A DNA stretch of 32,000 nt, from positions 4,746,580-4,778,579 of the forward strand of contig AP025018.1 of NCBI GenBank assembly GCA_019977735.1, read 5' to 3'. The notes beneath the pieces were generated by a model that was given only the letters and a program-made list of their open reading frames with translations, was not told the origin of the DNA and did not search any database. This DNA is from Calothrix sp. PCC 7716. Lineage in GTDB: Bacteria > Cyanobacteriota > Cyanobacteriia > Cyanobacteriales > Nostocaceae. Shown here piece after piece: positions 6,009 through 31,002 of this stretch; the first letter of the stretch is position 1; every line of letters starts with the position of its first letter. Position numbers and translations under genes: made by a program.

Positions 6009-6983
6009 GTGTCTACTATGGCATTCTCCCAGCCAGACCGATATATTAGCTTACTAACAGATTTTGGCTTCAAGCGTGTTTTTGGGTCGGAGCCAAATAA
6101 ACGCTTGCTTATAGATTTTCTCAACACGCTGCTACCGGACTATCATCAAATTCGGGATGTGACGTTTAAAAATTTAGAGAACCTGGGCGGTACAATATTG
6201 GATCGTAAAGCAATTTTTGATGTGTACTGTGAGGCAGAAAATGGAGACCGCTTTATTGTAGAACTCCAGAAAGTCAAGCAAAACTTTTTCAAAGACCGTA
6301 GTGTGTACTATGCGAGTTTTCCGATTCAAGAGCAAGCAGAGAAGGGAGAATGGAACTATGAATTAGCTCCTGTTTACCTGGTAGGATTGCTTGATTTTAT
6401 CTTTGATGACCATAAAAATGACCCGACATTTTTGCATGTTGTCGAGCTAAAAGACCAGGAATGTCGCGTTTTTTATGACAAGTTAAAGTTTATCTACATC
6501 GAGTTACCGAAGTTTAGCAAGACATTAGAGCAGTTGGAGACACATTTTGACAAGTGGCTATTTCTGTTTCGCCACCTACCCGAGTTATATGAACCACCAC
6601 CACCGTTGCAGGAGGAAGTGTTTGAGGAAGTGTTTGAGATAGCGGAGATTGCTAACTTTTCTCGTGATGAATACCGTAGTTATCAAGCGAGTTTAAAGGT
6701 TTACCGGGATTGGTATGCCATAGAAATGACTGGTCGGCAGGAAGCAAGACAGCAAGGACTAGAAGAAGGACGAGAAGAAGGACGCTCAGAAGGACGAGAA
6801 GAGGAAGCTAGAGCGCTTGTGAGGCGCCTTTTAACCCGCCGACTAAAACAAGAATTGTCCGAAGAGATACATAATCGTCTTTCCACGCTGCCGCTCTCAG
6901 TACTCGAAGACCTTAGCGAGGCTTTATTAGACTTCGCAACCTTGGCTGATTTAAACGATTGGTTGGCAAAACTCCATTCTTGA
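6009..6983 (+). CDS. Rpn-family (YhgA-like) PD-(D/E)XK recombination-promoting nuclease / putative transposase with DUF4351-like tail
   Basis: 324-aa ORF. N-terminal ISLLTDFGFKRVFG signature. PD-(D/E)XK-like D...E-x-K in FDVYCEAENGDRFIVELQK. C-terminal charged repeat EGREEGRSEGREEE and an alpha-helical tail, as in the many cyanobacterial copies of this family. Confidence 0.8.
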   Translation: MSTMAFSQPDRYISLLTDFGFKRVFGSEPNKRLLIDFLNTLLPDYHQIRDVTFKNLENLGGTILDRKAIFDVYCEAENGDRFIVELQKVKQNFFKDRSVYYASFPIQEQAEKGEWNYELAPVYLVGLLDFIFDDHKNDPTFLHVVELKDQECRVFYDKLKFIYIELPKFSKTLEQLETHFDKWLFLFRHLPELYEPPPPLQEEVFEEVFEIAEIANFSRDEYRSYQASLKVYRDWYAIEMTGRQEARQQGLEEGREEGRSEGREEEARALVRRLLTRRLKQELSEEIHNRLSTLPLSVLEDLSEALLDFATLADLNDWLAKLHS

Positions 6984-7356: not shown

Positions 7357-8646
7357 TCACGAATCTGGTCTACTAAGCTTTTGAGGAATGGGCCGTTCAG
7401 CAGCCATCACAGCAACTACTTCACCATTTTCATCGCGTTCAAAATTGAACTTCTTAATCATCGCCATTTTTGCTGCTTCCAATCTAAGTTCTTGGCTGTG
7501 ACTTACCAGCCACTCGTTAAGTAGAGCTATCTGAGCTTCTGGCTGTTTATGGAGATAATTAAAACGGCGCCTTTCCTCCTCTAAATTCACTGATTTCTTT
7601 AACTGCGGTAGTTTTTTGATTTGTGCGGCGCCAGTAGCCTCAGCAAAAGACTGATGAGCGTCTGTTGGTGTGGCTGATTTGGTTGGGACTAAAACAGCGG
7701 CGCCACGTTCAACCAATGTTCTAATATTTGCCATCAGGACTTGTGTATTTTCCTGTGTAGCTTCGGGTTTGGCTACGAAACAACTAGGTAAGATAGCTTG
7801 CCCATTACTATTTTGAACTTGGTTACACGTCTGGGTCGCGGTTGTGATGTATTCCAGAAATTGGGGATATAAAGCTACCTCAGTTCGAGACGGATTGTTA
7901 TAAAACTCGCTATATGCACATCCGTAAGCATCTGCTTCCCAACGTCCGCCTTGAGGCTTGTATTTGGTGTCAGCCCACCAATTCAGGAAAACTGGGTAAG
8001 GGCGCCCAACCTCTATTTCCCAAACAAATTTTTCTCGATTTTCATTTTCTAAGCTTGTTCGCTTTTTCGGGTTTATCGAACCAGCCACGGGAATATTGCT
8101 CTCATGATTAACCTTGTGTTCATTGAAGATTTTGGGTGGGGTTTCTGAGTTGGAAGGGATTTCTGGCGCCTGCGGATTTGGGGTATTTGAAGGAATTGGG
8201 GGATTCTCTCTTGAACCCTCTAGAGAGTGAGGAGTTTTATCTGAAGTGGAATCTATGTTATGTGCTGCTCTTTTTGAACAATTTGAATTGTCTATCATGG
8301 GCGCCTCGATGTGTTCAAAATGAACAAAGGTTTCCAAAGCCTCTTTATTTAAGGTATACCAGTTGGCTTGGTAATAAGTTTTGGCTGCGAGTCTTTCAAC
8401 AGATATCAGCCCAAGTTGCTTAAGGTGACTTACTACTCTTCTAACAGTGCTAACAGATAAACAAAGTTCTTGAGACCATTGCTGATATGTTTTCCAAAAC
8501 CACTTAGTACCATCAACCACTTTGCCTCCTTTTACGCTCATCCAATAATGTGCTTGCTGTAGAAAGGTGGCTTCGTTACGCCCAATTTTGGCAGCCAGTT
8601 CGGTTGAGTAAAATAAATAATTCCCGTCAAAAAGAAGCCTGGTCAT
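7357..8646 (-). CDS. winged-helix DNA-binding protein, candidate plasmid replication initiator
   Basis: 429-aa ORF. N-terminal 90 aa (YSTELAAKIGRNEATFLQQAHYW...WSQELCLSVSTVRRVVSHLKQLGLISVERL) resemble the wHTH N-domains of plasmid/phage replication organiser proteins. Followed by a P/S/N-rich linker and an unrecognised C-terminal domain. The function is an inference. Confidence 0.45.
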   Translation of the reverse strand: MTRLLFDGNYLFYSTELAAKIGRNEATFLQQAHYWMSVKGGKVVDGTKWFWKTYQQWSQELCLSVSTVRRVVSHLKQLGLISVERLAAKTYYQANWYTLNKEALETFVHFEHIEAPMIDNSNCSKRAAHNIDSTSDKTPHSLEGSRENPPIPSNTPNPQAPEIPSNSETPPKIFNEHKVNHESNIPVAGSINPKKRTSLENENREKFVWEIEVGRPYPVFLNWWADTKYKPQGGRWEADAYGCAYSEFYNNPSRTEVALYPQFLEYITTATQTCNQVQNSNGQAILPSCFVAKPEATQENTQVLMANIRTLVERGAAVLVPTKSATPTDAHQSFAEATGAAQIKKLPQLKKSVNLEEERRRFNYLHKQPEAQIALLNEWLVSHSQELRLEAAKMAMIKKFNFERDENGEVVAVMAAERPIPQKLSRPDS

Positions 8647-11030: not shown

Positions 11031-11261
11031 TTATGAATTGTCCTCCTTATGTTTATTGGTGGGGGGATGCGGCTGATTTTGTTGAACATATTCCCTTACA
11101 AACTCAATAATTGCTTCGTTCATGTTTTTGCCATTTAAAGCGCAGGCTGCTTTAAATTGCTCTCGAAGAGACCTGTCGGGAAAAGTAATTTTTAATGTTG
11201 CTGCTGGCTCAGGTTTTTTCGTGTCTGACACTGGGATGTTTGATACTAATGGGTTATACAT
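11031..11261 (-). CDS. ribbon-helix-helix protein (ParG/CopG/antitoxin-like)
   Basis: 76-aa ORF. A disordered N-terminus, then the RHH pattern TLKITFPDRSLREQFKAACALNGKNMNEAIIEFVREYV. Confidence 0.65.
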   Translation of the reverse strand: MYNPLVSNIPVSDTKKPEPAATLKITFPDRSLREQFKAACALNGKNMNEAIIEFVREYVQQNQPHPPTNKHKEDNS

Positions 11262-11729
11262 CCCAAATTATCCACCTTTTATTAGGTCTTTCCTGAAAAT
11301 ATGGCATATGGGATGAATATCCCGTTTGCATTAAACATCCCTTATGCTGTATTATAGCTATGTAAGATTAATTTCACTCAAAAATCTTACGTTGACTAAA
11401 AAGCAACACAAAGCGTGTGTTTTCTTCGTATGCCAAAAATCGCCTTAATCCTATTTTTAGTAAGGATTAGGCGTATTCCATCAGAGTAATTGGAGGAAAT
11501 AATATTGATACAACCGCGATTGGCACCAAATGCTCCAAAATACTCCAGAAACACCTGTGGGCAATGATGAGGGCGTATCTGAAAACTAGTTAAAGGTGCT
11601 TGCTCTCTTGCAATCAAAAAGGCAAGGACTTTTTAGAATTCGTTTCTGGCAGTTTTCATACACAATCTCAAAAATGTTGAAGATTTATTAACTTTCAAGA
11701 CAACTAATATTTTACGAGCGTAGAAATTT

Positions 11730-12323
11730 ATGAATAATCTACCGATAAACAGCCTTCCATCAAAAAGGATGGCGCCACGTGACTTCCTGCGTAACCTACT
11801 AATTGGGCACAATCTACAGGAAACTGAGTATCTCAGGCAAGAAATGGAACGAGGACACAAAACACTGTGTGCGAAAGTTCTCTCTTGTTTGCTGGGAGTA
11901 AGTATGTCAACGATTCGATGTGGATGGGGCACATTAGATTTTGAAACAATGCCTGAATACTACAAGCTCGTTTTAGGATACATAAGTACTGCGAAAATAG
12001 ATTTGCTACACGCAAGTAACATAAAAAGCGGCGCCTACAAGCCAGAAACCATCGAAGCGCAAGAATTTATCGAATACGCGCTCTCACTAAGTAATCTATT
12101 CGGTGATGAAAGAGATATAAGACTTTCAAAAAATGGTTTTTTCCACGAGTGCGCGCGGGCACTAGCTTCTTCGACAGGATTCGATTACAAAACAGTAGTG
12201 TTATGGGGTAATGACATTCGTTTCCATAAAATGCCGCGCGAACATAGGCGTACTTTATATTACGCAAAATTAGCAATTCAAACATCGATGAGCCAGCAGC
12301 CTAAACAGTTAGTTGCTGCATAA
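11730..12323 (+). CDS. hypothetical protein with an internally duplicated HTH-like module
   Basis: 197-aa ORF. Two similar segments, CAKVLSCLLGVSMSTIRCGWGTLDFETMPEYY and CARALASSTGFDYKTVVLWGNDIRFHKMPREH. Confidence 0.5.
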   Translation: MNNLPINSLPSKRMAPRDFLRNLLIGHNLQETEYLRQEMERGHKTLCAKVLSCLLGVSMSTIRCGWGTLDFETMPEYYKLVLGYISTAKIDLLHASNIKSGAYKPETIEAQEFIEYALSLSNLFGDERDIRLSKNGFFHECARALASSTGFDYKTVVLWGNDIRFHKMPREHRRTLYYAKLAIQTSMSQQPKQLVAA

Positions 12324-12641
12324 AGATAGTCTAGGTTCGCACTTTTGAATGATACTTGGGAAAAAAGTTGAAATTTGAACAAAAAACTAGACCCTAGTCA
12401 TACTATTTTTACGTCTCTGGTCTATGTACTATCTAACAAAAATACTTCAAAATGGAGATTAGACTTTTAGGATTTTAGGGTAACGACATACCAAACTAGC
12501 TCACGCGAAAATCGAACACCAACTCTTATATAAGCGAGCGGGTTTATACATTAATTTCTTTCAAATACCACAATTCCCGTTCAAAGTGTCAATAAACACG
12601 GATATCTTTGTACACCTAAGTAAATACATGGTATCGATATT

Positions 12642-12890
12642 ATGTACACAGCGGCGCCATTTACACCAACTTTCGACTACTCTAAATTTGAAAATCAGCA
12701 TTTAGCAGCAAAAGCTTCAGAGGCTCTTGGTAACTTCAAAAGTTTTGTTCGTCAAACCTTCGACGGTATCATTCAAATAGGACAGGAATTACAAGAAATC
12801 GAAGAACAATGCCTTACTCTAGGTAAAAACGGCAAGAAGGTTTTTAAGCAATGGCTCGACAGCAACCAGTTTGGTAAAGCAATACAGTAA
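12642..12890 (+). pseudogene. 5' fragment of a DUF3102-like gene interrupted by the 6.7-kb element
   Basis: The ORF reads ...IIQIGQELQEIEEQCLTLGKNGKKVFKQWLDSNQFG. It then runs into element DNA at 12875 (KAIQ*) and stops. The sequence continues in frame at 19581 (ASAYIARSAMQLHNWF...). Confidence 0.8.
12868..12874. repeat. left copy of the 7-bp junction direct repeat AGTTTGG
   Basis: Identical heptamer at 19574-19580. The two copies flank the element exactly where the host reading frame breaks and resumes. Confidence 0.8.
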
Positions 12891-12979
12891 AGATTTGTTA
12901 AACAACAACAACAGCAATCGATTTTTTATATACCGTTAAATTATAAGCTTATACAAATAAAAATTTTATACGACGTAAA

Positions 12980-14065
12980 ATGCGGTTAGTACTTCAGAAG
13001 GGTATTGACCCTTATACAGGCGCGACAGTTTGGGTAATGCTTGACTCTGATTACCAAGTCATAGAACCGATTCAGCGATACTTAACTTACCTGTGTAGTT
13101 TAAAATCTCCGAACACGGTGGAGACTTACGCCTATGGACTAAAAGCTTGGTGGGAATTTTTATTAAGCAAGAACTTAGATTGGCGTTCAATAGAGCTTTC
13201 TGATTTACAAGATTTTGTTTACTGGTTAAGAGTTGGAGAGACTGGCGATATTATTTCAATGCAACTAGTTCAAGCAAAAAGGTCAGAGCGTAGTATTAAT
13301 TTGACAATTACTGCTGTAACGACTTTTTATGAATACCATGTAGCTTGTAAAAATATTGACCCAGTAGAATTTATCGCTATTTCAGCATGTAAAGGAGCAG
13401 TTCGTAAAGGTTTACTAACAGGTATTGGAAAATCCAAGCCCAGAAGGGAGATGTTAGTTAAACTGAGAGAACCAAAAAAGTTTCCAGGTTGTTTAAGCGA
13501 TAAAGAAATTGAAATATTAGTGAATGCTTGCAACAGATTAAGAGATAAACTTATCATTCTAATGCTTAATAGCACAGGAATGAGAAAAGGAGAACTATTA
13601 GGGTTGTGCCATTCGGATGTGGGGGATAGAGGCAATAATATAGTTCAAGTAGTTAAAAGGCTAAACAACCCCAATTTAGCAAGAGCAAAGGGTAATTCAA
13701 GACCTATCCCTGTGCCATTAGAATTGCTAAAAATGTACAATGATTATCTAATTTATGAATACCCTGATATTATATCAGATTACGTATTTGTAAATATTTG
13801 GGAAGGTGAGATAGGAGCGCCAATGAACCCCAAAGTGTTGAATACAATGTTTAGCAGGTTAACAAAAAAGACAGGAATAAAAGTGTACCCACATCTTTTT
13901 CGTCATACATATGCAACTCGTTTAATTAAAGCGGGCTATTCAGCAGATAGAGTGAAGTACTTATTAGGACATGCATCAATTCAAACAACTTTAGATATTT
14001 ATAATCATGTGATTGAAGAAGATAAATTAATCTCAGTAATAGAAAGAGAAGAGAGGATAGAATGA
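12980..14065 (+). CDS. tyrosine recombinase, Tn554 TnpA-like
   Basis: 361 aa. Catalytic signatures: R in NSTGMRKGELLGL, HxxR in HLFRHTYATRL, H...Y in LLGHASIQTTLDIYNHV. The N-terminal SAM-like domain (TVETYAYGLKAWWEFLLSKNLDW) is as I recall for Tn554 TnpA. Confidence 0.9.
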   Translation: MRLVLQKGIDPYTGATVWVMLDSDYQVIEPIQRYLTYLCSLKSPNTVETYAYGLKAWWEFLLSKNLDWRSIELSDLQDFVYWLRVGETGDIISMQLVQAKRSERSINLTITAVTTFYEYHVACKNIDPVEFIAISACKGAVRKGLLTGIGKSKPRREMLVKLREPKKFPGCLSDKEIEILVNACNRLRDKLIILMLNSTGMRKGELLGLCHSDVGDRGNNIVQVVKRLNNPNLARAKGNSRPIPVPLELLKMYNDYLIYEYPDIISDYVFVNIWEGEIGAPMNPKVLNTMFSRLTKKTGIKVYPHLFRHTYATRLIKAGYSADRVKYLLGHASIQTTLDIYNHVIEEDKLISVIEREERIE

Positions 14066-15519
14066 ATCAAATAGATTTTCTAGATAACTTTCATAGCATA
14101 CTGCCAAGTCCAGAAAGTAAACAGATTTTTGAGAATCCTTTACTAAAACAAGATATATGGTCAACAAAGGATTTGGGGCTGAAAATAAGAGAGCATAACA
14201 GATGTTTGACATTGAACTTTAATGAGTTATCTCAAGATTGGTTCAAATTTTTAGTAAAACTTTATGTTTTATTAAGAGCATTACGTAAAATATCTCTTGG
14301 AACAATTCAGAATGAGATACAGAAATTTAGGCAATTTTCCAGATTTATGAAGCAGTATTCTATCAATAACATTGAAGAAATTAATGAGCAATTATTTGAT
14401 TCGTTTAATGAATATTTGCTTTTTCAAAAGCTGAAAAAGAATACAATTACGGGTTATTACATCGCGCTTAGTAATTTCTTTAACATATGTCGTGGTGAGG
14501 GGTGGCTTGAAGTTAATACTTTCTGGTTTCAAGGTCGTTTAATACGTTTTCGCCCCAATAATGACGAAGTAGACTATATTCCTGAAGATGTTTGGAATCA
14601 ATTAGACCAAAACCTTAATAAATTACCAGAACCTATACAACGAATGGTTTTACTAATTAGAACGACAGGTATGAGAATAGGGGAGCTACTTAACTTACCT
14701 TTTGATTGCTTGCGAAGAAGAGGTAAACAATGGTGTTTACGATTGACTACTGAAAAGTATGATATAGAGGACGAATTACCTATTTGTCCAGAATTAGTCA
14801 GTGTTATAAGAGAACAGCAAAACTACATAAAAGAGAATCTTGGTGCTATTTACGATAAATTATTTTGCAGTAATGGTGGTCATGGGATATCAGATTTTTA
14901 TCCGAAACCAAAAGTGATGTCTGGAGAAAGTTTTAATAAATGGTTGAACAGATTATCAGGTGATTGTAATATTTGTGCGAAAGGAAAAACAGAGCCTTGG
15001 AAATTTAAATCTCATCAATTTCGTAAAACAGTCGCAACTATAATGACGAATAATGGTATTAGGGATTTAATAATTCAAAAATATCTTAGACACCGTTCTC
15101 TTGACATGCAAAATTATTATAAACATTTGCTAAAACAAGTGTTAGAAGCAGAATATGAAGAGTTAATGCGGGAGAAAAAATATATTGATATTTCAGGTCA
15201 TATAGTAGCTACTTACAAACCTGATAATCCAGTGACTGAATTGATGCGTCGTAAAATGCACTCGATTACAACTATATATGGAGAATGTCATCGTCCGATT
15301 TTAAAGAATCCTTGTGAAATTGTAAATGCTTGCCTACACTGTCAGCATCTACATATTTCCATTGATGATTTACCTTTTCTTAAGCAAGACTTAAAGCGAG
15401 TAGAGTCCGAATTAGAAATTGCAAAAAAATTAGGAATGATTAGACAACAGCAAGGGTTGGAATCCGATTACAAACGTTTAATAACTCTAATACAATTGTT
15501 GGAAACTAGTAATGATTAA
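14062..15519 (+). CDS. tyrosine recombinase, Tn554 TnpB-like (paralog 1)
   Basis: 485 aa. The start overlaps the upstream stop (ATGA). R in RTTGMRIGELLNL, HxxR in HQFRKTVATIM, H...Y in YLRHRSLDMQNYYKHL. C-terminal Cys/His motif IYGECHRPILKNPCEIVNACLHCQH. Confidence 0.85.
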   Translation: MNQIDFLDNFHSILPSPESKQIFENPLLKQDIWSTKDLGLKIREHNRCLTLNFNELSQDWFKFLVKLYVLLRALRKISLGTIQNEIQKFRQFSRFMKQYSINNIEEINEQLFDSFNEYLLFQKLKKNTITGYYIALSNFFNICRGEGWLEVNTFWFQGRLIRFRPNNDEVDYIPEDVWNQLDQNLNKLPEPIQRMVLLIRTTGMRIGELLNLPFDCLRRRGKQWCLRLTTEKYDIEDELPICPELVSVIREQQNYIKENLGAIYDKLFCSNGGHGISDFYPKPKVMSGESFNKWLNRLSGDCNICAKGKTEPWKFKSHQFRKTVATIMTNNGIRDLIIQKYLRHRSLDMQNYYKHLLKQVLEAEYEELMREKKYIDISGHIVATYKPDNPVTELMRRKMHSITTIYGECHRPILKNPCEIVNACLHCQHLHISIDDLPFLKQDLKRVESELEIAKKLGMIRQQQGLESDYKRLITLIQLLETSND

Positions 15520-17347
15520 TATTAACTGGAAGACCGATTATCATCGTGAATTTACATGTCCTAATTGTGGCCAAAAAAGCTTAGTATTACAAGGCACTAC
15601 TAACTATAAACGGAGATTTCAATGTAAAAACTGTAAAAAATATGTCAACAATTCTTGCAATGTAAAAATAGATATTAATACAGTTCAATCAAAAATAAAT
15701 TGGCGTACAGACTATAAAGTTGGTGAGTTTGCTTGTCCTAATCCTAATTGCCATGATCGAAATGTTAGACTTAGTGGCAAAGACAGTCATTCTGGTAAAA
15801 AATTTTTTCAATGTAAAACTTGTTTAGCCACGGCAGTAGAGTCGAATGGCTTAACATCTGCCAATTTAAGTAAATATACTAACACAAAACCTAACATAAA
15901 ACCTTTCAATTTTAATGATGCTCAATGGGATTTAAGAGCAATTAATCTTTTGTACAACGAACGCACAAAAGTCACAATTATAAATTTTGATTTAATTAAA
16001 GTTGATTGGTTAAAATTGTTTGTAAAAAAATATATTTATCAGCAGTGTCAAAGAGAAAGCTCTCATGATACAATCAATAGAAAATTCTATGTTCTTTTCA
16101 AATTTTCTGAATATTTATTTAGACGGTGTGTTTTAACAATCGAGCAAATCAGTCGTGATATAATTCGAGACTTTGTTTATAACTGTACTAGAAGCAATGG
16201 AGAAATACGTAGAAACTTAGGCGCATTAAAAGATTTTTTTACAACAGGAAATTTGCATAATTGGTTTAAAATCAGTCAAGATATAGTCAGAAATGAAGAT
16301 TATCCAAAAAAGAAAATAAAGAATCCGGACCCAATTTCTGACACTGTTAGATTACAAATAGAAAGTAATTTAAAGAAATTACCTGAGCCAATTGCAAGAA
16401 TGTGGGTAGTAGCATTTTTCACAGCAGTAAGACCCGAGGAGTTAGCCTTTTTAAAAAAAGATTGTTTAATTCAAGATGGCGGTCATTGGAAAATTATTTG
16501 GCACAGAAATAAAACCAAAGATAAACATGAAGTACCTGTAACAAGAATTATTGCAAAGGTAATTCAAGAGCAGGTGGAATATATTGAAGAACTTTGGGGT
16601 AATGATTGGCCATATTTATTCTGTCATTATCAAGGCATATCAAAAAATGACATAAATCATCCGAAAATTCAACCTGTAAAAAAAGTAATATCTTCAAACA
16701 ATAACCCACTCAAACGAGCTATTTGTTGTTTAATTATAACAGAAAATATTCGAGATGATAATGGTGAACTAGCAACATTTAGTCCTAGTTTAGTACGACC
16801 AACTCGTTTAACCCAACTTTTTGAGCAGGGGCATGACCTTGCTGTTGTTAGCACATGGGCAGGACATAAACAGTTAGCAACAACAAGCCTTCACTATACA
16901 AAAGTCAGTTGCGAGTTAATTGAGAAAGAAGCAGGACATATTCAAAAAGTTCTAGTTAACACTGATGGTAAGCCTTTACATTATGAATCAATGCCTAAAA
17001 CTTTTTGGGAGAATCCTCGCGCTCATGAATTAAGTTTACCAGCCGACCATATCAACACTCCAATTTATGGTTATTGTGGTTTACCATTGAATGAAGATTG
17101 CAATAAGTTTCGTGCTTGTTATACGTGTCCCTGTTTTGTTCCAATACCTGAAAAATTAACCTTGTATATTACAAATCGTGATCAATTAAGAGCAAAAGAA
17201 TCAAGAGCTAGGCTGAACGGGCATGATGTATTAGTTGAACAATATGGACGGCAAGCCGACCAATTAGATAAAATTATTGCTATTTTAACAGGAGGTGACT
17301 ATGAACAAGGAATCAATAAGAGCAGCCAGGATAAAAACCTTAACTGA
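15512..17347 (+). CDS. tyrosine recombinase, TnpB-like (paralog 2) with N-terminal tandem zinc ribbons
   Basis: 611 aa. 8-nt overlap with the upstream gene. Two INW(K/R)TDY...CxxC...CxxC modules. R in FTAVRPEELAFL, H...Y in WAGHKQLATTSLHYTKV. The HxxR box is atypical (LVRPTRLTQLF). C-terminal IYGYCGLPLNEDCNKFRACYTCPC. Confidence 0.8.
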   Translation: MININWKTDYHREFTCPNCGQKSLVLQGTTNYKRRFQCKNCKKYVNNSCNVKIDINTVQSKINWRTDYKVGEFACPNPNCHDRNVRLSGKDSHSGKKFFQCKTCLATAVESNGLTSANLSKYTNTKPNIKPFNFNDAQWDLRAINLLYNERTKVTIINFDLIKVDWLKLFVKKYIYQQCQRESSHDTINRKFYVLFKFSEYLFRRCVLTIEQISRDIIRDFVYNCTRSNGEIRRNLGALKDFFTTGNLHNWFKISQDIVRNEDYPKKKIKNPDPISDTVRLQIESNLKKLPEPIARMWVVAFFTAVRPEELAFLKKDCLIQDGGHWKIIWHRNKTKDKHEVPVTRIIAKVIQEQVEYIEELWGNDWPYLFCHYQGISKNDINHPKIQPVKKVISSNNNPLKRAICCLIITENIRDDNGELATFSPSLVRPTRLTQLFEQGHDLAVVSTWAGHKQLATTSLHYTKVSCELIEKEAGHIQKVLVNTDGKPLHYESMPKTFWENPRAHELSLPADHINTPIYGYCGLPLNEDCNKFRACYTCPCFVPIPEKLTLYITNRDQLRAKESRARLNGHDVLVEQYGRQADQLDKIIAILTGGDYEQGINKSSQDKNLN

Positions 17348-18158
17348 AACACAATTAATAAGAAAACAAGAGACTTTACAAAAAGTTTATACAGCAATCG
17401 AGCGTTTGCAAAAAAACGGTGCAAAAATTAACTTTCAAACTATTGCCAAAGAAGCGAACGTTAGTGTTCCATATTTGTATAAATACCCGGAATTAAAAGC
17501 ACATATAGCTCAATTACGTAACCAACAATCATCAATGTCATCAAGCACGACAGTACAACCCCCTGTTACTGCTAAAACCCACTCTCAAATAGTTGAGCGT
17601 TTGAAAAAACGTATACATGAATTAGAAGCGGATATGAGCGAGATTAAGCGAAAAAATGAAGCATTAGCAGGGCAAGTTTATAGAGTACATTCCTTGCAAG
17701 AGCAAGTTGAACGTCAAAGAGATATAATAGAAACCTTAGAAAATCGTTTAAAATCAGCCAATCAACAAGTAAGTGAAAGTAAAGTTATTCCTCTAAATAA
17801 AAAATCAGTGGTTATAAGTGAGCGTATATTAGGTGAACTGAATCAAATAGGAATAGAACTAAACAGTAACTTAACTAATCTGATTAAAGCTGCTACAGAA
17901 TCAGAGATTTTAGCAGCTATTGAATATTATAAATATGAACAAGAACGAATAGATATTGAAAATCCTGGTGGGTGGTTAGCGCGTGCAATAAAAGGTCGTT
18001 GGAAGAAACCTGATAAATCACAACAAACCTCAGAGCCTGCAAAAGTACCAAAACAATCTGAAATATTTTCATCATCTACTCAAGTAGGTAGAGAATTTGT
18101 ATCTCTAGAAGAACTTACGAATATTAGTACTATATTTGGCGATAAATCAGATGACTAA
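17301..18158 (+). CDS. TnpC/DUF6262-like HTH protein fused to coiled-coil and C-terminal domains
   Basis: The ORF track starts at GTG 17295, but ATG 17301 is preceded by GGAGG (17291-17295). The N-terminal about 75 aa (LQKVYTAIERLQKNGAKINFQTIAKEANVSVPYLYKYPELKAHIAQLR) resemble the small third protein of Tn554-type elements (from memory). Then a coiled coil, and a C-terminal ENPGGWLARAIKGRWKKP motif. Confidence 0.6.
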   Translation: MNKESIRAARIKTLTETQLIRKQETLQKVYTAIERLQKNGAKINFQTIAKEANVSVPYLYKYPELKAHIAQLRNQQSSMSSSTTVQPPVTAKTHSQIVERLKKRIHELEADMSEIKRKNEALAGQVYRVHSLQEQVERQRDIIETLENRLKSANQQVSESKVIPLNKKSVVISERILGELNQIGIELNSNLTNLIKAATESEILAAIEYYKYEQERIDIENPGGWLARAIKGRWKKPDKSQQTSEPAKVPKQSEIFSSSTQVGREFVSLEELTNISTIFGDKSDD

Positions 18159-19464
18159 TAAGATACCTCCACAAAATCTTGAAGCAGAGGAAAGCATACT
18201 TGGTGGTTGTTTACTAGACCCCAATGCTATTGGCAGAATTGCTGATATTTTAATCCCAGAAGCCTTTTATTTTTCTGCTCACCAACAAATTTATAAAGCA
18301 ATGTTAGAATTATATAATCATTCATTACCAACTGATTTATTAACAGTTACTTCTTGGCTGTCTGACCACAAATTATTAACTAAAGTTGGCGGCAGAAATC
18401 AGCTAAGTAAATTAGTTGAGAGTACAGTATCAGCCGTAAATATAGACCATATAGCAAACTTAGTTGTGGAGCAATATCAACGTCGGCAGTTAATTAGTGT
18501 CGGTTATGAAATTGTCGAATTAGGTTATGATGTCACATTTAAAATTCAAGAAGTTTTAGAGCAGTCCGAAAGTAAAATTTTTAATTTAACTTCAAACAAA
18601 CAAGATAAATTTAAACCACAATTAATAAGTGATTGCCTTCGTGAAGTATTTCAAGAGTTAAAACAAGGATATACTCCAGGTTATCCGACTGGATTAAAAG
18701 ACTTAGATGGATTAATTGGAGGATTAAATAAACAAGATTTAATTGTAATTGCTGCAAGAGCATCAATGGGTAAAACTTGGTTGGGTTGTTATTTTGCAAA
18801 TTATATTGCCATACAGCAACAGTTACCTGTTGTTTTCTTCTCTGCTGAAATGTCCTCTTCACAATTAACCAAAAGATTTTTAGCCATACATTCAGGTATT
18901 GATTCTAGCAGGCTAATTCGTAACCAAATATATCAGGACGAGATAGATAGCTTAAAACAAGCTTTGTGTACTTTGCTCAGATTACCTATTGTCATCGATG
19001 ATACACCTGCACTTTATCAAAATCCCGGACGTATATGTTCTGTACTGCGAAGAATTAAGTCAGAGCGAGGTAATTTAGGCTTAGTCGTTATGGATTATAT
19101 TCAAAAACTTGGTGATAGAGCAGTAAGTAATAGAGCGCAAGCAGTTGGCAAATTCTCCGGCGCATTTAAAGACATTGCTAAAGAATTTGACGTTCCATTT
19201 ATAGCTTTAGCTCAAATTAATAGAGGTGTAGAAAGCCAAACAAATAAACGCCCAACGATGGCGGATATAAAAGACTCAGGTGATATAGAACAAGATATGG
19301 ATATTGGATTACTTCTTTATCGAGATGAGTATTACAATCCAGATACACAAGATAAAGGAGTAATGGAGATTAACGTTGCTAAAAATCGCAATGGCGCCAC
19401 AGGAACTTGTAAAGTCTCATTAGACCCAATTATTGGAACTTTTCGCGATATCACAGTTTCTTAA
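18151..19464 (+). CDS. dnaB: DnaB-family replicative DNA helicase
   Basis: DnaB N-terminal signature PPQNLEAEESILGGCLLD. Walker A AARASMGKTW, Walker B LVVMDYIQ. AQINRGVESQTNKRPTMADIKDSGDIEQDMDIGLLLYRDEYY matches the conserved DnaB C-terminal block. ATG 18151 overlaps the upstream stop (ATGACTAA); the ORF track starts at TTG 18136. No intein. Confidence 0.9.
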   Translation: MTNKIPPQNLEAEESILGGCLLDPNAIGRIADILIPEAFYFSAHQQIYKAMLELYNHSLPTDLLTVTSWLSDHKLLTKVGGRNQLSKLVESTVSAVNIDHIANLVVEQYQRRQLISVGYEIVELGYDVTFKIQEVLEQSESKIFNLTSNKQDKFKPQLISDCLREVFQELKQGYTPGYPTGLKDLDGLIGGLNKQDLIVIAARASMGKTWLGCYFANYIAIQQQLPVVFFSAEMSSSQLTKRFLAIHSGIDSSRLIRNQIYQDEIDSLKQALCTLLRLPIVIDDTPALYQNPGRICSVLRRIKSERGNLGLVVMDYIQKLGDRAVSNRAQAVGKFSGAFKDIAKEFDVPFIALAQINRGVESQTNKRPTMADIKDSGDIEQDMDIGLLLYRDEYYNPDTQDKGVMEINVAKNRNGATGTCKVSLDPIIGTFRDITVS

Positions 19465-19573
19465 GACCGACCAAATTGCTACCAAAGTCCAAAAGCTTAA
19501 ATATCGTTGTATAAAGTGTTAACAACAATCAATGCCTTATGTTGCAAACGTTGTATACGTTGTGTATTACATA

Positions 19574-19580
19574 AGTTTGG
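19574..19580. repeat. right copy of the 7-bp junction direct repeat AGTTTGG
   Basis: Identical to 12868-12874. Immediately followed by CGCCAGTG, which completes the host TGGCGCCA palindrome. Confidence 0.8.
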
Positions 19581-20796
19581 CGCCAGTGCTTATATTGCAA
19601 GAAGTGCGATGCAGTTGCACAACTGGTTTAAAGATTTAAATCCGCGATTACAACGATTGATTCGTTCAAACGTTCAAGACTGGAAGGTTTCAGCATTACG
19701 CCATCTGAAGCACTTAACTGATGATGTAATTGAAGCCGCAGTTACTACAGGAAGGAAAACAGCATCGCAACTCAAACAACTGTCTGGTAAAGTTCATCAA
19801 AAAATGGCGCCATCTGAAGTTACTTCGGGCGATAACAACTTGAGTTTTCAGAACAAGGCATCAGAAGAATCAGAGGAATTTGATCTACCAGAAATTGTTT
19901 CTACACCAGAGTTGGCGCTAAATAGTGTAACTCCTACTCCTACACTCCTGTTGACGCGAGGAGTGCGGATAGTTGTGCAAAATGAATCAACTGGCTGGAA
20001 TGGCGCCAGTGGAATAATTACGACTGTTGGCAATAATGATGATTTTTGGGTTTTATTAGACCACACCATAGCTCAAGGGATGGTAACGAAACATTTACTC
20101 AAATCTCACCAATTAAGATTGGAATCTAAAATATCTACTCCCACAGCTTCAGCACAAGTGTTGACCACTGTTGATATTGACAAAATTAAGGCAGAAACTA
20201 TCAGACAGTATCTGCTAGAACATGCAGAAGAACAACAGGGAAAATATTTAGAAATTAAAGGTGCCGCTCTTGTTGCTGCCGAGAAAGAAATTGCATCGTT
20301 TGAAAAACATGCTCAATGTATGACCGATAAAGTGTCTAAGCTAGTTGAGCAGTTGGAGGCATCTGAGCAAGAAATCGCGCGTTTACACTCTTTGCACGCA
20401 GAAAATCAACAGTTACAGCAACGAGTCACAGAATTAGAAAATGCGCTCCTAAAAGCATCAGAAGACAGTTGGGGTAACACTTTCAATACTCAAGCTGCCA
20501 AAGTTATGAACTCGGAAATTGAGAAAAAAGTGGCACCGCTAATGTCTGAGGTTGAACGATTACAGAACTTGGTACAGAAAAAAGATGCCCAATTAGCTCA
20601 AATGCAGCAAATTCCGGCGCCTGATAGTGAAGAAGTGATTTCCGAGTTTGGAGAAATTGGCGAGCAGTTAGGTTGGCATGGCTGGCGCCGTTCTGGGTAC
20701 AGAGACAAAAACGGTACGCTGCATAAAGGCATCAACGCAATTAGCGCATTTGTATCTGATTTAGCGCGGGAGTATCACCAGGAAACGGCATTTTAA
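19574..20796 (+). pseudogene. 3' fragment of the interrupted DUF3102-like / long coiled-coil (KfrA-like?) gene
   Basis: From FGASAYIARSAMQLHNWFKDLNPRLQRLI onward the sequence continues the 12642 fragment in frame. The C-terminal half is an extended coiled coil (EQLEASEQEIARLHSLHAENQQLQQRVTELENALLKA). The first 22 codons of tracked ORF 19507.. are element-end DNA. Confidence 0.75.
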
Positions 20797-21183
20797 ATTA
20801 ACGAATTCATTAACATATACTGTGCGTATCGTTTTTTCTGTAAAACGATTGGTTGATGTCATTGCGTTTACTCTGCCATAACTGTAATTGTGCTTCTCGT
20901 AAAACAACTGTTGGAGATTTAGCTTGCAAAATCCACGAACTTCCCTCGTTTAATACTTCAACCATTTGTACTATTCAACTTAATTAAGCCTTGGTTACAA
21001 GTTTTTAATATTTCTAAGTTATCCGAGGGCTTTTTTAAACTTCAAATGCTTGTAAATAATTTAACTCGTTCAATCTTTCAAAACCTCAATATCCCTTATT
21101 TATATTTTTCCTCTGCCTAGAGTGACAAAAGAGGGATAAGCTTGCAGGGTCAAAATAAAGTGAAAGTCTGCCGTTGCTGTGTT

Positions 21184-22890
21184 TTAGTTATACAAATTAA
21201 CTAAATTGTATATTGCGTGGAGTAAATTATCTGGTTCAACAGGTTTAGGTATGTGCGTTTGAAAACCCATTTCTAACGCCCGTTGTCTGTCATATTCACT
21301 AGCGTAAGCAGTTATTGCAATCGCGGGAATTTGTCCGCCTTGTTTGGCTGGTAATGACCGAATTTGACGAATCAGTTCATATCCATCTTCTTCTGGCATT
21401 CCAATGTCACTTACTACTATGTCTGGCGGGTGTGCAACCAGAGATGAAAATGCATCCGGCACTGAGGTTGCAGAATACACAGAAGCTCCATGTTCTTCCA
21501 AGATATAAATTATTATATTAAGGTTATCGGCTTGATCATCTACCACAAGTACCCGCACGCCGTTTAAATCGAGGTTATTATTATCCTGTCTACTATTTTG
21601 GGTTTTTGCCAAAGTCGGTATGAGTGGTAATCTAATAGTAAAAGTCGCTCCTTGTCCTTCACCAGCACTCTCTGCCTCAATTGTACCACCATGTAGTTCA
21701 ACTAAACGGCGGACAATAGCCAAGCCTAAGCCTAACCCACCAGTACTTCTAGTTGTGCTGCTGTTTTCTTGACAAAAGTAATCAAATATATAAGGTAAGA
21801 AGTTACAATTTATACCTTTGCCTGTATCGCTAACTTGAATTTGAGCATAGCCTTCAACTCTTTCGAGCTTAATTGTTACCTGTCCATGATTTTGTGTAAA
21901 TTTAATGCTATTAGTAAGTAAATTCCAAATCACTTGCTGTAAACGGTTGGGATCACCTAAGCATGATTCGATATTAGTGTCAAAAACAGTATTAATTTCA
22001 ATTGACTTAGCTTGAGCGGCAAGACCTACAGTGTCAATAGCTGCAGTGATTATTGTTTTCAAATCGACTACAACAGGTTGCAATCTAATCTTACCGCGCA
22101 AAATTCGCGAAATATCCAGCAAGTCATCTATAAGTTGCGCCTGTAAAGAAGCATTACGTTCAATAGTTTCTAAAGCTTTCTGTATTACACTTTGATCAAG
22201 TTTACGACTACGTAAAATTTTCGCCCAGCCCAAAATAGGATTAAGGGGTGTTCGTAATTCATGGGACACAATAGCCAGAAATTCATTCTTAAGACGGTTG
22301 GCTGTTTGTGCTTCTTCTAAGAGTTGTTTGAGCCGTTCATTTTCTGCATGTTTACGTACAGTGATATCTCTGAGTGAAACTAGATAGGCGGGTTCTCCTT
22401 GCCATTGGATTTGGGCTACTCGCATTTGCGCGATTACTATTTCTCCAGCACGGTTACAAACATCCACTTCTACATCATTACCATTAATCAAGGGAAAGCC
22501 AAATAACTGACCTAAAAGTTCTTCTTCTTGGCGCCCAAATAAGATCGTCCCTGCCGGATTCAAAAAGCGGATAATTCCCTGCTGGTTAACTACTACCATG
22601 CCATCAACATTGTTGGCAATTAAATTTTGTAACTGTGCTTGAGTTTGCAAAAGTGCTGCTTCTGTCTGGCTTTTACGAGCAATTTCCTGTTGTAATTGCC
22701 GATTACTTTCGATTAATTCTGTTGTTTGCTTAAGAAGCTGTTCCTCGCGGTTAGTACCTAAATCAGAATCGATTTTCTGTTGCTGTAGCGACTCAACGGA
22801 TAATTTTTCTAATCTTATTGCTTGCTTAATCGCTTCTGGCAGTTGTGTTTTTTGTTTTGGAAGCAAGTAATCAGTTGCTCCTGCTTTCAT
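21184..22890 (-). CDS. hybrid sensor histidine kinase (PAS-HisKA-HATPase-REC) that starts with a receiver-domain tail fragment
   Basis: 568 aa. H-box LAIVSHELRTPLNPILGW. HATPase G-boxes DTGKGI and GGLGLGLAIVRRLVELHGGTIEAES. C-terminal receiver VLVVDDQADN...VVSDIGMPEEDGYELIRQIR...KPV. The first residues KAGATDYLLPK are the end of another receiver domain. Confidence 0.85.
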   Translation of the reverse strand: MKAGATDYLLPKQKTQLPEAIKQAIRLEKLSVESLQQQKIDSDLGTNREEQLLKQTTELIESNRQLQQEIARKSQTEAALLQTQAQLQNLIANNVDGMVVVNQQGIIRFLNPAGTILFGRQEEELLGQLFGFPLINGNDVEVDVCNRAGEIVIAQMRVAQIQWQGEPAYLVSLRDITVRKHAENERLKQLLEEAQTANRLKNEFLAIVSHELRTPLNPILGWAKILRSRKLDQSVIQKALETIERNASLQAQLIDDLLDISRILRGKIRLQPVVVDLKTIITAAIDTVGLAAQAKSIEINTVFDTNIESCLGDPNRLQQVIWNLLTNSIKFTQNHGQVTIKLERVEGYAQIQVSDTGKGINCNFLPYIFDYFCQENSSTTRSTGGLGLGLAIVRRLVELHGGTIEAESAGEGQGATFTIRLPLIPTLAKTQNSRQDNNNLDLNGVRVLVVDDQADNLNIIIYILEEHGASVYSATSVPDAFSSLVAHPPDIVVSDIGMPEEDGYELIRQIRSLPAKQGGQIPAIAITAYASEYDRQRALEMGFQTHIPKPVEPDNLLHAIYNLVNLYN

Positions 22891-24361
22891 ACAGTTTACG
22901 GCAGGTTGCTAAACCCATTCCCGTACCTTCGTACTGACTATTACTATGCAACCGAAAGAACGGTGTAAAAATTTGCTCCTGGTTTTCTTCGTCAAAACCA
23001 ATGCCATTATCTTCCACAGTAATTTCATATTGCAAATCTTTATATAGGCTTTGGTAAATTTTTATAATGGGTGCTGCTTCCAATTTATGAAATTTTAGGG
23101 CATTGGAAATCAAGTTCTGAAATAGCTGACGTATTTGAGAACAATCGCATTCAATTATCGGTAGTTCTCCAACATGAATACATGCCTGGTTTTCCTTAAT
23201 TTCTACTTCTAAATCTGACAAAACTTCTTGTAAAACTGTATTTAAATTAACTGAAACAAACGACTGCGCTTGAGTTGTCACTCGTGAGTAGGTGAGTAAA
23301 CTTTTAATTAAGCTTCGCATCCGCATCCCAACGTTTTGCATCCTTTCTAAGTATCCGCGTCCTTTAACGTCAAGTAGTAAACCATACTCCTGTTCTAATT
23401 GCTTACTAAGCATTTCGATTTTATGTAAAGGTGCGATTAAGTCGTGAGAAACAACATGGGCAAATTCCTCTAAATCGTTATTGCTACGTTCCAGTTCTTT
23501 AACAAGTTTCTGCAACTTTACTTCTGTTTGCTTACGCTGATCAATATCTTGAATCTGGGAAATAAAGTAAAGTGGTTTCCCATTACGATTGCGTACTAAG
23601 GAAACACTTAACAAAATCCAGACGCTGTGTCCCTGTTTATGGAAATAGCGCTTTTCCATTTGGTAAGTGCGAATTTTTCCTGCTAACAATTGACGCACGT
23701 AATCCAAGTCAGTGTTCAAATCATCAGGATGGGTAATATCTTGAAAGGTAATTTGTAATAATTCCGCTTCCGAATAGCCAATAATTTCACATAAAGAACG
23801 ATTGACTTTCAACCACTTTCCATCTGGTGAGACTAATGCCTTACCTATTGCTGCATCATGAAAAGCAAGGCTAAATACTTCTTCATTTTGGCTAACTTCT
23901 TCTTCTAGTTTCTTTTGTTTGGTAATATCTCTACCTTCGGCGATAAGTAATACTACCTGTCCTGCTTCGTTTTTTACAGGGCGTAGAGAAAAATCCATTG
24001 TAGTAGTGTACGACCCTTTCCCTAACACATCTACCTCATACCGAACGAGTTTTCCTTGAGCTGCGGTAGCAATTGCAACTTTTAGCTGTTGTTGAGTTTG
24101 AGGTGAAATTGTCCACCATCTTGCTTCCCAAAACGGTTTTTGGATAACATTTGAGTGAGCTATATCACCAAGAGATAACGCAGTTTGGTTAGCATCTAGA
24201 AGCATACCATTGGGTTTAACTAGCACAACAAACTGAAAACTCTGCTCAAAAATGGTACGAAATTGCCTTTCAATTTCGATAATAGTTTGAGAAAATTCTT
24301 GCTCCATAGAAATATTTTTTATGTTTTTATCATTATTGAGAAATTTCGCGTCATTACTCAT
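22871..24361 (-). CDS. multi-PAS sensor histidine kinase with truncated HATPase domain
   Basis: 496 aa. PAS-type blocks. H-box FAHVVSHDLIAPLHKI. N-box LISNALKF, G1 DNGIGF, G2 GTGMGLATCRKL. The ORF then terminates (YESRSN*) about 35 aa short of a normal HATPase_c end. Confidence 0.8.
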   Translation of the reverse strand: MSNDAKFLNNDKNIKNISMEQEFSQTIIEIERQFRTIFEQSFQFVVLVKPNGMLLDANQTALSLGDIAHSNVIQKPFWEARWWTISPQTQQQLKVAIATAAQGKLVRYEVDVLGKGSYTTTMDFSLRPVKNEAGQVVLLIAEGRDITKQKKLEEEVSQNEEVFSLAFHDAAIGKALVSPDGKWLKVNRSLCEIIGYSEAELLQITFQDITHPDDLNTDLDYVRQLLAGKIRTYQMEKRYFHKQGHSVWILLSVSLVRNRNGKPLYFISQIQDIDQRKQTEVKLQKLVKELERSNNDLEEFAHVVSHDLIAPLHKIEMLSKQLEQEYGLLLDVKGRGYLERMQNVGMRMRSLIKSLLTYSRVTTQAQSFVSVNLNTVLQEVLSDLEVEIKENQACIHVGELPIIECDCSQIRQLFQNLISNALKFHKLEAAPIIKIYQSLYKDLQYEITVEDNGIGFDEENQEQIFTPFFRLHSNSQYEGTGMGLATCRKLYESRSN

Positions 24362-28883: not shown

Positions 28884-29049
28884 TTAGTCGTGACTCACTC
28901 CCGAAAAGGTGTGGTGCCATGATAACTCAACAAGTTTAAGCGTTTATGGCGCCGCAGTTCCAAAGATGTTTAACTATTTAATTAATTCTCCCTCGTGAGT
29001 TATGTAATTACTTTTCGTCTTAATTCTTGGTATACTTCTATATCTTTCC

Positions 29050-29133
29050 GTAAGAATTCAGGTAACCAGTGGGTGCCTCCTCTCCAAGACTTTAAGCGAG
29101 TGACACCCGAAGGGTGTCACGGCGCCATAAAAA
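29050..29133. repeat. IS left terminal inverted repeat (contains hairpin GTGACACCC-GAA-GGGTGTCAC)
   Basis: GTAAGAATTCAGGTAACCAGTGGGTGCCTCC...GTGACACCCGAAGGGTGTCACGGCGCCATAAAAA matches the reverse complement of 30801-30884 at 76 of 84 positions. Confidence 0.85.
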
Positions 29134-29249
29134 CGCTCATAAAAAAGTATAAACAGAACTTAAGAGAAAAGATAACAATTACTTTAAGGCGCACGTTTTA
29201 ACAAAACGTATATAGGTACAGAAATTTTACCCATAATCAAGGTCGTAAT

Positions 29250-30716: not shown

Positions 30717-30800
30717 AATGAAAGATAATCTGCCCTCATGTTACCTTTGTCAAGACCCACCAGACCAACCGCAGCGTTTTTTACGTACTTGTTTATTTAA

Positions 30801-30884
30801 TTTTTATGGCACCGTGACACCCTTCGGGTGTCACTCGCTTAAAGTTTTGTGGAGGAGGTGCCCACTGGTCACCTGAATCCTTAC
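30801..30884. repeat. IS right terminal inverted repeat
   Basis: Reverse complement of 29050-29133 with 8 mismatches. Ends ...CCTGAATCCTTAC. Confidence 0.85.
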
Positions 30885-31002
30885 GATACAATCGTTTATC
30901 TGACTGAAAGTACCTCAACATGTCATTAATTTCGCAATAACTCACAAAAAGCGTCTCAATTAATGGAATAATGGTTTAGATATTAATTAAGCTTGGTCGA
31001 TT

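Follow-up and report, generated by a model that had tools for sequence, protein, structure and literature searches.

Five groups of transposons that move by means of tyrosine recombinases are recognised (ICE/IME, SE, GInt, RIT, and Tn554; PMC10214605). Members of three of them (Tn554, GInt, and SE) spread antibiotic resistance and virulence genes, yet their mode of movement is unresolved: the literature asks whether they are cut out or copied out, and which host replication functions they need (PMC10214605). Tn554-related elements have been reported from Firmicutes and Actinobacteria (PMC10214605), and our literature searches turned up no account of a helicase in elements of the Tn554, GInt, SE, or RIT type, nor of a cyanobacterial member. 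Here, we analyze a 32,000-nt stretch of the chromosome of Calothrix sp. PCC 7716 (AP025018.1; "the window," to which coordinates refer), in which five overlapping genes on the + strand (g1–g5, 12980–19464) encode three tyrosine recombinases, a TnpC-like protein, and a DnaB-family replicative helicase. Our data strongly indicate that positions 12875–19573 constitute a discrete 6,699-bp (6.7-kb) site-specific transposon of the Tn554 superfamily, and, with some reserve, we lean towards a combined reading in which its DnaB most likely supports copy-out or a replicating circle.

The genes of this element are tightly packed. The first, g1 (12980–14065, 361 aa), encodes a TnpA-like tyrosine recombinase and is followed by two TnpB-like tyrosine recombinase paralogs, g2 (14062–15519, 485 aa) and g3 (15512–17347, 611 aa), by a long TnpC-like protein containing DUF6262, g4 (17301–18158, 285 aa from its ATG), and by a complete DnaB-family replicative helicase, g5 (18151–19464, 437 aa from its ATG). 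Successive genes overlap by 4 nt (ATGA, 14062–14065), 8 nt (ATGATTAA, 15512–15519), 47 nt (17301–17347), and 8 nt (ATGACTAA, 18151–18158). With ATG starts, the ORF listing of the window thus reproduces exactly the five reading frames and four overlaps reported in a preliminary description of this DNA, whose bounds (12875–19580) take in the element and a single copy of its 7-bp core. The GTG at 17295 could also serve as the start of g4; exact-protein matches were found with the ATG starts of g4 and g5 and none with GTG 17295 or TTG 18136. The start-stop overlap between g4 and g5 is kept in the gene calls of relatives. From this layout, g5 is predicted to be translationally coupled to g4, and g1–g5 are predicted to form one overlapping operon (tnpA-like, two tnpB-like, a long tnpC-like, and a full dnaB). 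A promoter scan was uninformative (31 promoter-like sites versus 30.8 expected), and a terminator scan found no terminator-like site between the genes, its single match lying inside g5. The five-gene module does not reflect chance, because every gene has strong homologs and the gene order recurs in dozens of loci.

The limits of the element are best seen from the gene that it interrupts. The 5′ part of this gene (12642–12874, + strand; codons 1–77 of 482) ends ...NQFG and then runs into element sequence (KAIQ*), while its 3′ part (19581–20796, + strand) is annotated as CAL7716_042180 and is 100% identical to P0002. The same 7 bp, AGTTTGG, flank the element on both sides (12868–12874, the attL crossover region, and 19574–19580, the attR crossover region, both + strand). 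Joining 12642–12874 to 19581–20796 yields a single uninterrupted 482-aa ORF, the insertion being in frame, and this restored ORF is 86–90% identical to intact homologs (P0001 and P0003) that read ...WLDSNQFGASAYIA... across the junction; residues F77 and S80 are invariant in the family. A related strain, represented by a syntenic metagenomic contig (L004, 87–88% nucleotide identity), has an empty site: the contig aligns to 11042–12874 and 19571–20834 (the latter corresponding to L004 6224–7487) and holds a single AGTTTGG at the junction. Moreover, an independent short-read assembly (Logan) has a 6,715-bp contig, L003, that matches 12870–19584 at 100% identity, contains the five genes only, and breaks off at the element ends. 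A repeat that the assembler collapses into a contig of its own typically looks like this. PCC 7716 has two identical-sequence accessions for each of g1, g3, g4, and g5 (BDA70047–51 here and BDA74720–24, CAL7716_08886x-0889xx, at a second locus), and these two identical copies indicate recent movement. The empty site, the two identical copies, and the assembly unit with matching ends bear out the earlier proposal that the five genes, dnaB included, travel as one discrete mobile unit. The GC content of the element is 33.3%, compared with 39.6% in the rest of the window. The break points of the short-read contig (12870 and 19584) would fit a second copy that has a base other than G at the equivalent of 12869 and the same …AAGTTTGGCGCC on the right; this copy may have an imperfect core pair in a similar TTTGGCGCC site.

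The coding region is bordered by short non-coding ends. The left end (12875–12979, 105 bp, + strand) begins with the terminal arm TAAAGCAATAC and contains a conserved AAACAACAACAACA at 12900–12913 as well as inverted TTGTATA-type repeats at 12950 and 12967 (- strand). The right end (19465–19573, 109 bp, + strand) contains direct (C)GTTGTATA repeats at 19507 and 19551, AACAACAA at 19521–19528, and TTGTGTA at 19560, and closes with the terminal arm GTATTACATA. The arms, as read from the sequence, are imperfectly inverted (GTATTAC… on the left, …GCAATAC on the right), and self-comparison revealed no long terminal inverted repeats in the element. Left-end motifs are kept in four relatives (L013, L015, L031, and L093), and a AACAACAA(CAACA) motif occurs in both ends and is kept across relatives.

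Two of these relatives clarify the nature of the 7-bp core. In the closest (L093, a JGI 3300083027 contig with ~83% nucleotide identity), homology starts exactly at 12875 (TAAAGCAATAC…) and stops at …GTGTATTACATA; it has the same arms and end repeats, but its flanking core is ATACATT on both sides, not AGTTTGG, and it interrupts a tyrosine-recombinase gene at the …IHDLRHTF box. Since the arms are identical and the core differs, the element proper is 12875–19573 and the 7 bp represent a target-dependent crossover core. A more distant relative from an uncultured Calothrix metagenome-assembled genome (MAG; L031) splits an apparent C5 DNA-methyltransferase gene at motif I (GGLDLG|F), with a left core, ACCTGGG, that is that of its target and a right core that reads ATTTGGG. 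In Tn554 and SEs, attL retains the target core and attR the donor core (PMC10214605); the L031 cores appear to match this footprint rule, which argues against a fill-in target duplication. All four insertions with a reconstructed target ORF (the window, L093, L031, and L029) are co-oriented with that ORF, which, with only four cases, is weakly compatible with read-through expression as reported for GInts. Insertion inside conserved protein motifs of different genes (QFGAS and, in the two relatives, catalytic or cofactor motifs, namely the apparent C5-methylase motif I and the tyrosine-recombinase HxLRHT box) makes these elements a source of restorable gene interruptions. None of the other elements fetched lies in the 482-aa target family, and a tRNA-targeting island is ruled out by the absence of any tRNA or Rfam feature in the window. 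The interrupted gene belongs to an uncharacterised coiled-coil family of ~480 aa that has several paralogs per Calothrix or Rivularia genome, some on plasmids (P0001–P0105); the family has no Pfam or PHROGs match and an invariant N-terminal motif, KKVF.xWL…F.xS.Y.A.

The helicase gene is a regular member of this module well beyond Calothrix. We scanned GTDB species genomes and scored ORFs against g1–g5 at 78 loci, none of which is a PCC 7716 locus. This search for conserved synteny, suggested in the preliminary description, recovered the order g(1)-2-3-4-DnaB in ~44 of the 78, across cyanobacterial orders. These class I elements (three recombinases, DUF6262, and DnaB) occur in Calothrix, Stigonema, Scytonema, Iningainema, Nostoc, Crocosphaera, Chamaesiphon, Waterburya, Xenococcaceae, Symplocastrum, and a Chondrocystis plasmid. 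Class II elements have three recombinases and a DUF6262 protein with an altered C-terminus, without DnaB (three copies in C. parasitica NIES-267), class III has two recombinases, DUF6262, and DnaB (Stanieria pSTA7437.01), and the common class IV, with two recombinases and DUF6262, is plain Tn554-like. The best 120 DnaB homologs are 64–91% identical to g5 and 432–445 aa long. When loci were instead approached from the helicase, the four-gene module lay directly upstream in 3/3 sampled on longer contigs. One Waterburya MAG contains a multicopy 6.75-kb unit with these five genes only, and a second contains a multicopy unit of ~8.9 kb with ~2.2 kb of extra DNA after dnaB.

Mean pairwise identity across 19 dereplicated class I elements is highest for DnaB (0.70, versus 0.69 for g1, 0.59 for g2, 0.56 for g3, and 0.57 for g4), and DnaB diverges in step with g1 (rho 0.63 between distances) and g4 (rho 0.72), a correlation as strong as that among the recombinases themselves. 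In an approximate neighbor-joining tree of TnpA, built without bootstrap, the three-recombinase elements form one clade in which DnaB prevails and DnaB-less lineages are nested. In these comparisons, dnaB behaves as a conserved core gene of a large cyanobacterial family. With this family, abundant and multicopy in cyanobacteria, the reported host range of Tn554-related elements widens to that phylum, and many cyanobacterial genes labeled 'replicative DNA helicase' are probably transposon genes. Individual loci show further variation. The three DnaB-less copies in C. parasitica NIES-267 (L051–L053) are 95–97% identical, encode a DUF6262 protein with a different C-terminal tail, and also share ~2 kb upstream, including a DUF6876 gene, such that either their targets are related or the unit is larger. 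In a MAG of an uncultured cyanobacterium (L011, 164–11706), 1.5 kb separates two different five-gene elements in head-to-tail arrangement, whose g5 proteins are 63% and 80% identical to that of the window, possibly reflecting a hotspot or insertion beside a resident element. Plasmid1 of Chondrocystis sp. NIES-4102 (L001, 7956–15802) carries a decaying five-gene copy, with IS transposases between g2 and g3 and a dnaB annotated as two fragments (dnaB2_2 and dnaB2_1).

Profile searches identified Phage_integrase domains in all three recombinases (Pfam; g1, E 5.7e-29, together with SAM_1; g2, 1.1e-17; g3, 8.3e-11), DUF6262 in g4, and both DnaB and DnaB_C in g5, in line with the assignments of the preliminary description and confirming g2 and g3 as recombinases. 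Compared with the Tn558 copy on an E. faecium plasmid (L086), g1 is 35.8% identical to TnpA (residues 2–348, E 4e-62), g2 is 26% identical to TnpB over its whole length, C-terminal Cys cluster included (E 8e-40), and g3 is 25% identical to TnpB (E 7e-24). The g3 N-terminus has two zinc-ribbon-like CxxC...CxxC motifs, which score slightly below the cutoff of Zn_ribbon_IS1595 (24.6 bits). Alignments of 20 sequences each showed g1 residues R202, H305, R308, H331, and Y341, g2 residues R205, H318, R321, H344, and Y353, and g3 residues R307, R429, H452, and Y462 to be invariant (20/20). Hence none of the three proteins varies at Arg-I, Arg-II, His-III, or the Tyr nucleophile, while the His-II position varies in g3 and is mostly Lys. 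The g2 and g3 proteins are 27% identical to each other over 423 aa (E 5e-25) and have in common LPEPIxRM and a C-terminal IYGxC…C…C..C cluster. That all three recombinases keep catalytic signatures and that the second and third are paralogs sharing these two motifs, as first noted in the preliminary description, therefore holds; g2 and g3 are TnpB paralogs with their catalytic residues kept, and are predicted to be catalytically intact.

The fourth protein combines a TnpC-like part with a long extension. Its N-terminal 124 residues match DUF6262 (Pfam, 4.9e-11), residues 42–131 are 33% identical to Tn558 TnpC (E 4e-13), and it carries ~150 C-terminal residues more than TnpC. In its layout, a DUF6262/HTH-like part at the N-terminus is followed by a long coiled coil, and the C-terminal domain, made of four helices, bears the motif NPGGWLxxAIxxGW; a weak VPA1267 match occurs in g4 and its homologs (VPA1267_fam, 20.5 bits versus a cutoff of 90). 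An AF2 model of adequate confidence (pLDDT 77) had no significant fold match, the best Foldseek hit to the PDB having E = 0.7 and the weak matches being to TetR/DtxR/Rex HTH domains only. We considered the C-terminal domain as a helicase loader and dropped this idea, as it has no loader-like fold match and is also present in DnaB-less relatives. At E < 1e-3, g4 has 346 homologs, nearly all cyanobacterial and many on contigs of 6.2–7.2 kb.

By all measures applied, g5 is a full replicative helicase. It matches DnaB_C (1.3e-75) and DnaB (1.5e-30) in Pfam, exceeds the cutoff of the NCBIfam equivalog TIGR00665 (461.3 bits versus 385.25) with full-length N- and C-terminal domains, and can be aligned over its whole length with the DnaB of G. 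stearothermophilus (2r6a, E 5e-88), including the NTPase hallmark segments AARASMGKT, VVMDYIQ, ALAQINR, and SGDIEQDMD (picked by eye). The nearest DnaBs outside the element clade are 45–51% identical to g5 and include the intein-containing chromosomal DnaBs of cyanobacteria (~47%); g5 is therefore not a recent copy of the host gene. A phage-borne origin is likewise unsupported, with g5 below the cutoff of the phage DnaB model and only generic DnaB matches in PHROGs.

Among described systems, homology ties the element to the Tn554 family (Tn554, Tn558, Tn6260, and Tn6674), whose TnpA, TnpB, and TnpC are homologous to g1, to g2 and g3, and to the g4 N-terminus. Shared features are the left-end gene order, overlapping genes, and the lack of long terminal repeats; site-specific insertion with a 6–7-bp core and an attR core that can differ from the target (as in L031, though the two cores are identical in the window and in L093) may be shared as well. 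The first gene is likewise of TnpA type and of the expected length (~361 aa; 361 aa in g1), and a DUF6262 protein follows the recombinases in both. However, Tn554 has a single TnpB where this element has two paralogs, its TnpC is small (~121–125 aa, compared with 285 aa for g4), and the family carries resistance cargo where this element, in cyanobacterial hosts, has DnaB. Cyanobacteria also hold two-recombinase Tn554-like versions, both with and without DnaB. Single genes have already been labeled in databases (e.g., Crocosphaera cce_4564, 'Tn554-related, transposase C'), and so the homology itself is not new; the novelty lies in the element as such, in the duplication of TnpB, and in a DnaB that forms part of it.

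In architecture, GInts and SEs are the most similar of the known groups. GInts (Tn6571 family, ginABCD; PMC5385486) have three consecutive tyrosine-recombinase-fold genes and a small TnpC-like gene at their 5′ end, as in g1–g4, with further genes starting at the stop codon of the fourth gene, a short AT-rich 3′ end, flanking direct repeats, and precise target restoration; replicative excision was suspected for some members by the authors who described them (PMC5385486). GInts differ in having a GinC without the catalytic motif (PMC10214605), whereas g3 retains Arg, Arg, His, and Tyr, in their imperfect repeats of 10–17 nt, compared with 7 bp here, and in their variable cargo (2.5–70 kb, with no helicase reported), whereas the only extra gene here is a conserved dnaB (1.3 kb). 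GInt hosts are Proteobacteria and a few other phyla, and our GInt comparison is by architecture and published description only; Proteus and Staphylococcus matches, on proteobacterial and Firmicute plasmids, that were taken up as GInt candidates turned out to be Tn6260 and Tn558. SEs (strand-biased circularizing integrative elements) resemble the element in their four core proteins, including a TnpC/VPA1267-like auxiliary protein, in their 6-bp footprint rule, and in a proposed copy-out route that needs DNA synthesis. Their gene order, intA-tfp-intB-srap, is not matched, since the middle protein of SEs, Tfp, is non-catalytic while g2 retains R205, H318, R321, H344, and Y353; a GmtY model, used to test for SE membership, scored 48 bits against a cutoff of 340. 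SE hosts are limited to Gammaproteobacteria, the median SE measures 15.7 kb with its cargo, and no SE-encoded helicase has been reported (PMC10214605).

In RIT elements, too, three tyrosine recombinase genes lie side by side and overlap, each product having its catalytic tyrosine, but RitA/B/C are 315–410 aa long, the elements have 34-bp terminal inverted repeats, and they contain neither a TnpC/DUF6262 protein nor a helicase (PMC10214605). The recombinases described here are of 361, 485, and 611 aa and have a DUF6262 partner, unlike those of RITs. A parallel of another kind comes from ICEs of the SPI-7/ICEclc type, with their DnaB, and from SCCmec, with its Cch helicase: each is an integrated element that brings its own replicative helicase and thereby implies replication of the excised form. 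These islands are large, carry many genes, and use recombinases of other types, whereas our element has no conjugation or packaging genes, and g5 scores 325.7 bits against the SPI-7-type DnaB model, whose cutoff is 655. The earlier proposal of a candidate new integrative element family therefore needs qualification: we found no described family of the Tn554, GInt, SE, or RIT type that carries a helicase, but the element is a branch of a known superfamily and not an entirely new kind, because GInts and SEs, which the preliminary description overlooked, have three recombinase-fold proteins and a TnpC-like protein.

In the mechanism that we favor, the three recombinases and the TnpC-like protein would synapse both ends and exchange strands across the 7-bp core, to give a circular intermediate with the expected junction GTATTACATA-(7 bp)-TAAAGCAATAC. 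The expected attP would be …GTGTATTACATA-NNNNNNN-TAAAGCAATACAG… and the empty attB …CAACCAGTTTGGCGCCAGT…. The circle would integrate at sites chosen by proteins, and not by core homology alone, following the Tn554/SE footprint rule; protein-chosen sites are suggested by close relatives in which the arms are the same while core and target are not. DnaB would most likely support the DNA synthesis needed for copy-out, either through unwinding of the donor duplex from a recombinase nick or through replication of the excised circle, such that the donor copy would stay and copy number would rise. Copy-out has a precedent in SEs and possibly in Tn554 and GInts (PMC10214605, PMC5385486). Tentatively, DnaB may be loaded at the recombinase nick, perhaps via the extended TnpC-like protein, and drive strand displacement and copy-out with the donor retained; we regard this more specific route as possible but short of probable.

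Several observations weigh against copy-out or a replicating circle. Among 31 short contigs, we found no suffix-prefix overlaps or permuted contigs that would signal a circular form, and no g5-to-g1 junctions save that between the two different tandem elements in L011. The element contains no recognisable initiator, primase, or helicase loader, and the two identical copies in PCC 7716 could also have come from cut-and-paste behind a replication fork. The end motifs (arms, TTGTATA-type repeats, and AACAACAA) are suggestive only, as they lie in AT-rich DNA. Finally, relatives without DnaB are multicopy (the three-recombinase type has three copies in Calothrix parasitica), and two-recombinase types without it are common, so that mobility in the superfamily does not require DnaB. 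We infer a role for the helicase, though not an indispensable one, and postulate the excised, replicating form.

Other explanations assign the helicase a different part. It could be a long-retained passenger of a cut-out/paste-in Tn554- or GInt-like island, there to benefit the host or its plasmids or simply hitch-hiking. Cargo is normally variable, yet here the same gene is kept in ~44 loci across orders, is the most conserved of the five, co-diverges with g1 and g4, and is coupled to g4, and minimal elements carry no other extra gene. Against this stand the position of dnaB, which is where GInt cargo begins (right after the ginD stop codon; PMC5385486), the multicopy state of DnaB-less sister elements, the extra cargo after dnaB in some relatives, and the many cyanobacterial plasmids that encode a DnaB of their own, and we consider a passenger doubtful but worth keeping in view. 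The element might also be an integrative mini-plasmid, a 6.7-kb circle that replicates as an episome with DnaB as its helicase and an origin in the repeat-bearing ends, integration being a parking state. Such a plasmid would account for a full replicative helicase in g5, for the iteron-like direct GTTGTATA repeats and the AACAACAA motifs in the ends, and for plasmid- or phage-like surroundings that encode a DnaD-like loader/initiator 4 kb away, but the lack of an initiator or primase inside the element, the absence of element-sized circular contigs among at least 30 short contigs, and the integrated state of every sampled copy render it unlikely.

Replication-type ATPases regulate transposition in IS21 (IstB, DnaC-like), Tn7 (TnsC), and Mu (MuB), and DnaB could similarly have been co-opted as an ATP-dependent target-selection or regulatory factor, directing the element to forks or single-stranded DNA, for example. 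The tight coupling of g5 to a TnpC-like protein fits this idea, given that TnpC influences Tn554 integration. Nevertheless, the targets look sequence- or motif-specific, not fork-specific, g5 keeps all checked features of a translocating helicase and scores as a cellular DnaB equivalog, and we know of no precedent for DnaB in target selection; we hold such a function to be improbable. Even less credible is a developmentally excised interruption element (like those of nifD, fdxN, and hupL) whose removal would make the 482-aa gene whole again in one cell type of this heterocystous cyanobacterium. The known elements of that kind have just one xis recombinase (xisA/xisC/xisF), near one end, and not three, the present family is multicopy and found in abundance in unicellular genera that form no heterocysts, such as Crocosphaera, Chamaesiphon, Waterburya, and Stanieria, and targets differ between close relatives, notwithstanding that Calothrix genomes are rich in such elements (PMC4874684) and that the insertion is in frame in a conserved gene and precisely restorable.

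If DnaB does drive copy-out from the recombinase nick, this would be the first transposon family in which tyrosine recombinases act jointly with an element-encoded replicative helicase, and it would offer a genetic handle on the copy-out mechanism proposed for Tn554, SE, and GInt elements. That a natural lineage has built a replicative helicase into its core operon points to replication as an inherent part of the pathway, and the element provides a minimal 6.7-kb system, without other cargo, for testing replication in transposition.

The remainder of the window places the element in a mixed neighborhood. A 429-aa ORF (7357–8646, - strand) has no Pfam match but matches PHROGs families of DnaD-like helicase loaders (1.3e-19) and replication initiators (O-like), and is kept in the empty-site relative (L004). 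This ORF indicates that the surroundings of the transposon are a plasmid- or phage-like stretch that has become part of the chromosome, with a potential DnaB loader 4 kb off, outside the element. A gene for a PD-(D/E)XK_2 'transposase' with DUF4351 is found nearby (6009–6983), as it is at an Okeania locus (L088, 1102–2034); this may be coincidence, the family being very abundant in cyanobacteria. Directly downstream of the interrupted gene is a cluster of PAS-containing (hybrid) histidine kinases (21184–24361, - strand, and 26306–28474, + strand), which are ordinary chromosomal signaling genes. Further downstream, an IS66-family transposase gene (29250–30716, - strand; DDE_Tnp_IS66, 1.9e-36) is flanked by 85-bp inverted repeats (29049–29133 and 30801–30885, 90.6% identity), and 29049–30885 is probably a complete IS element.

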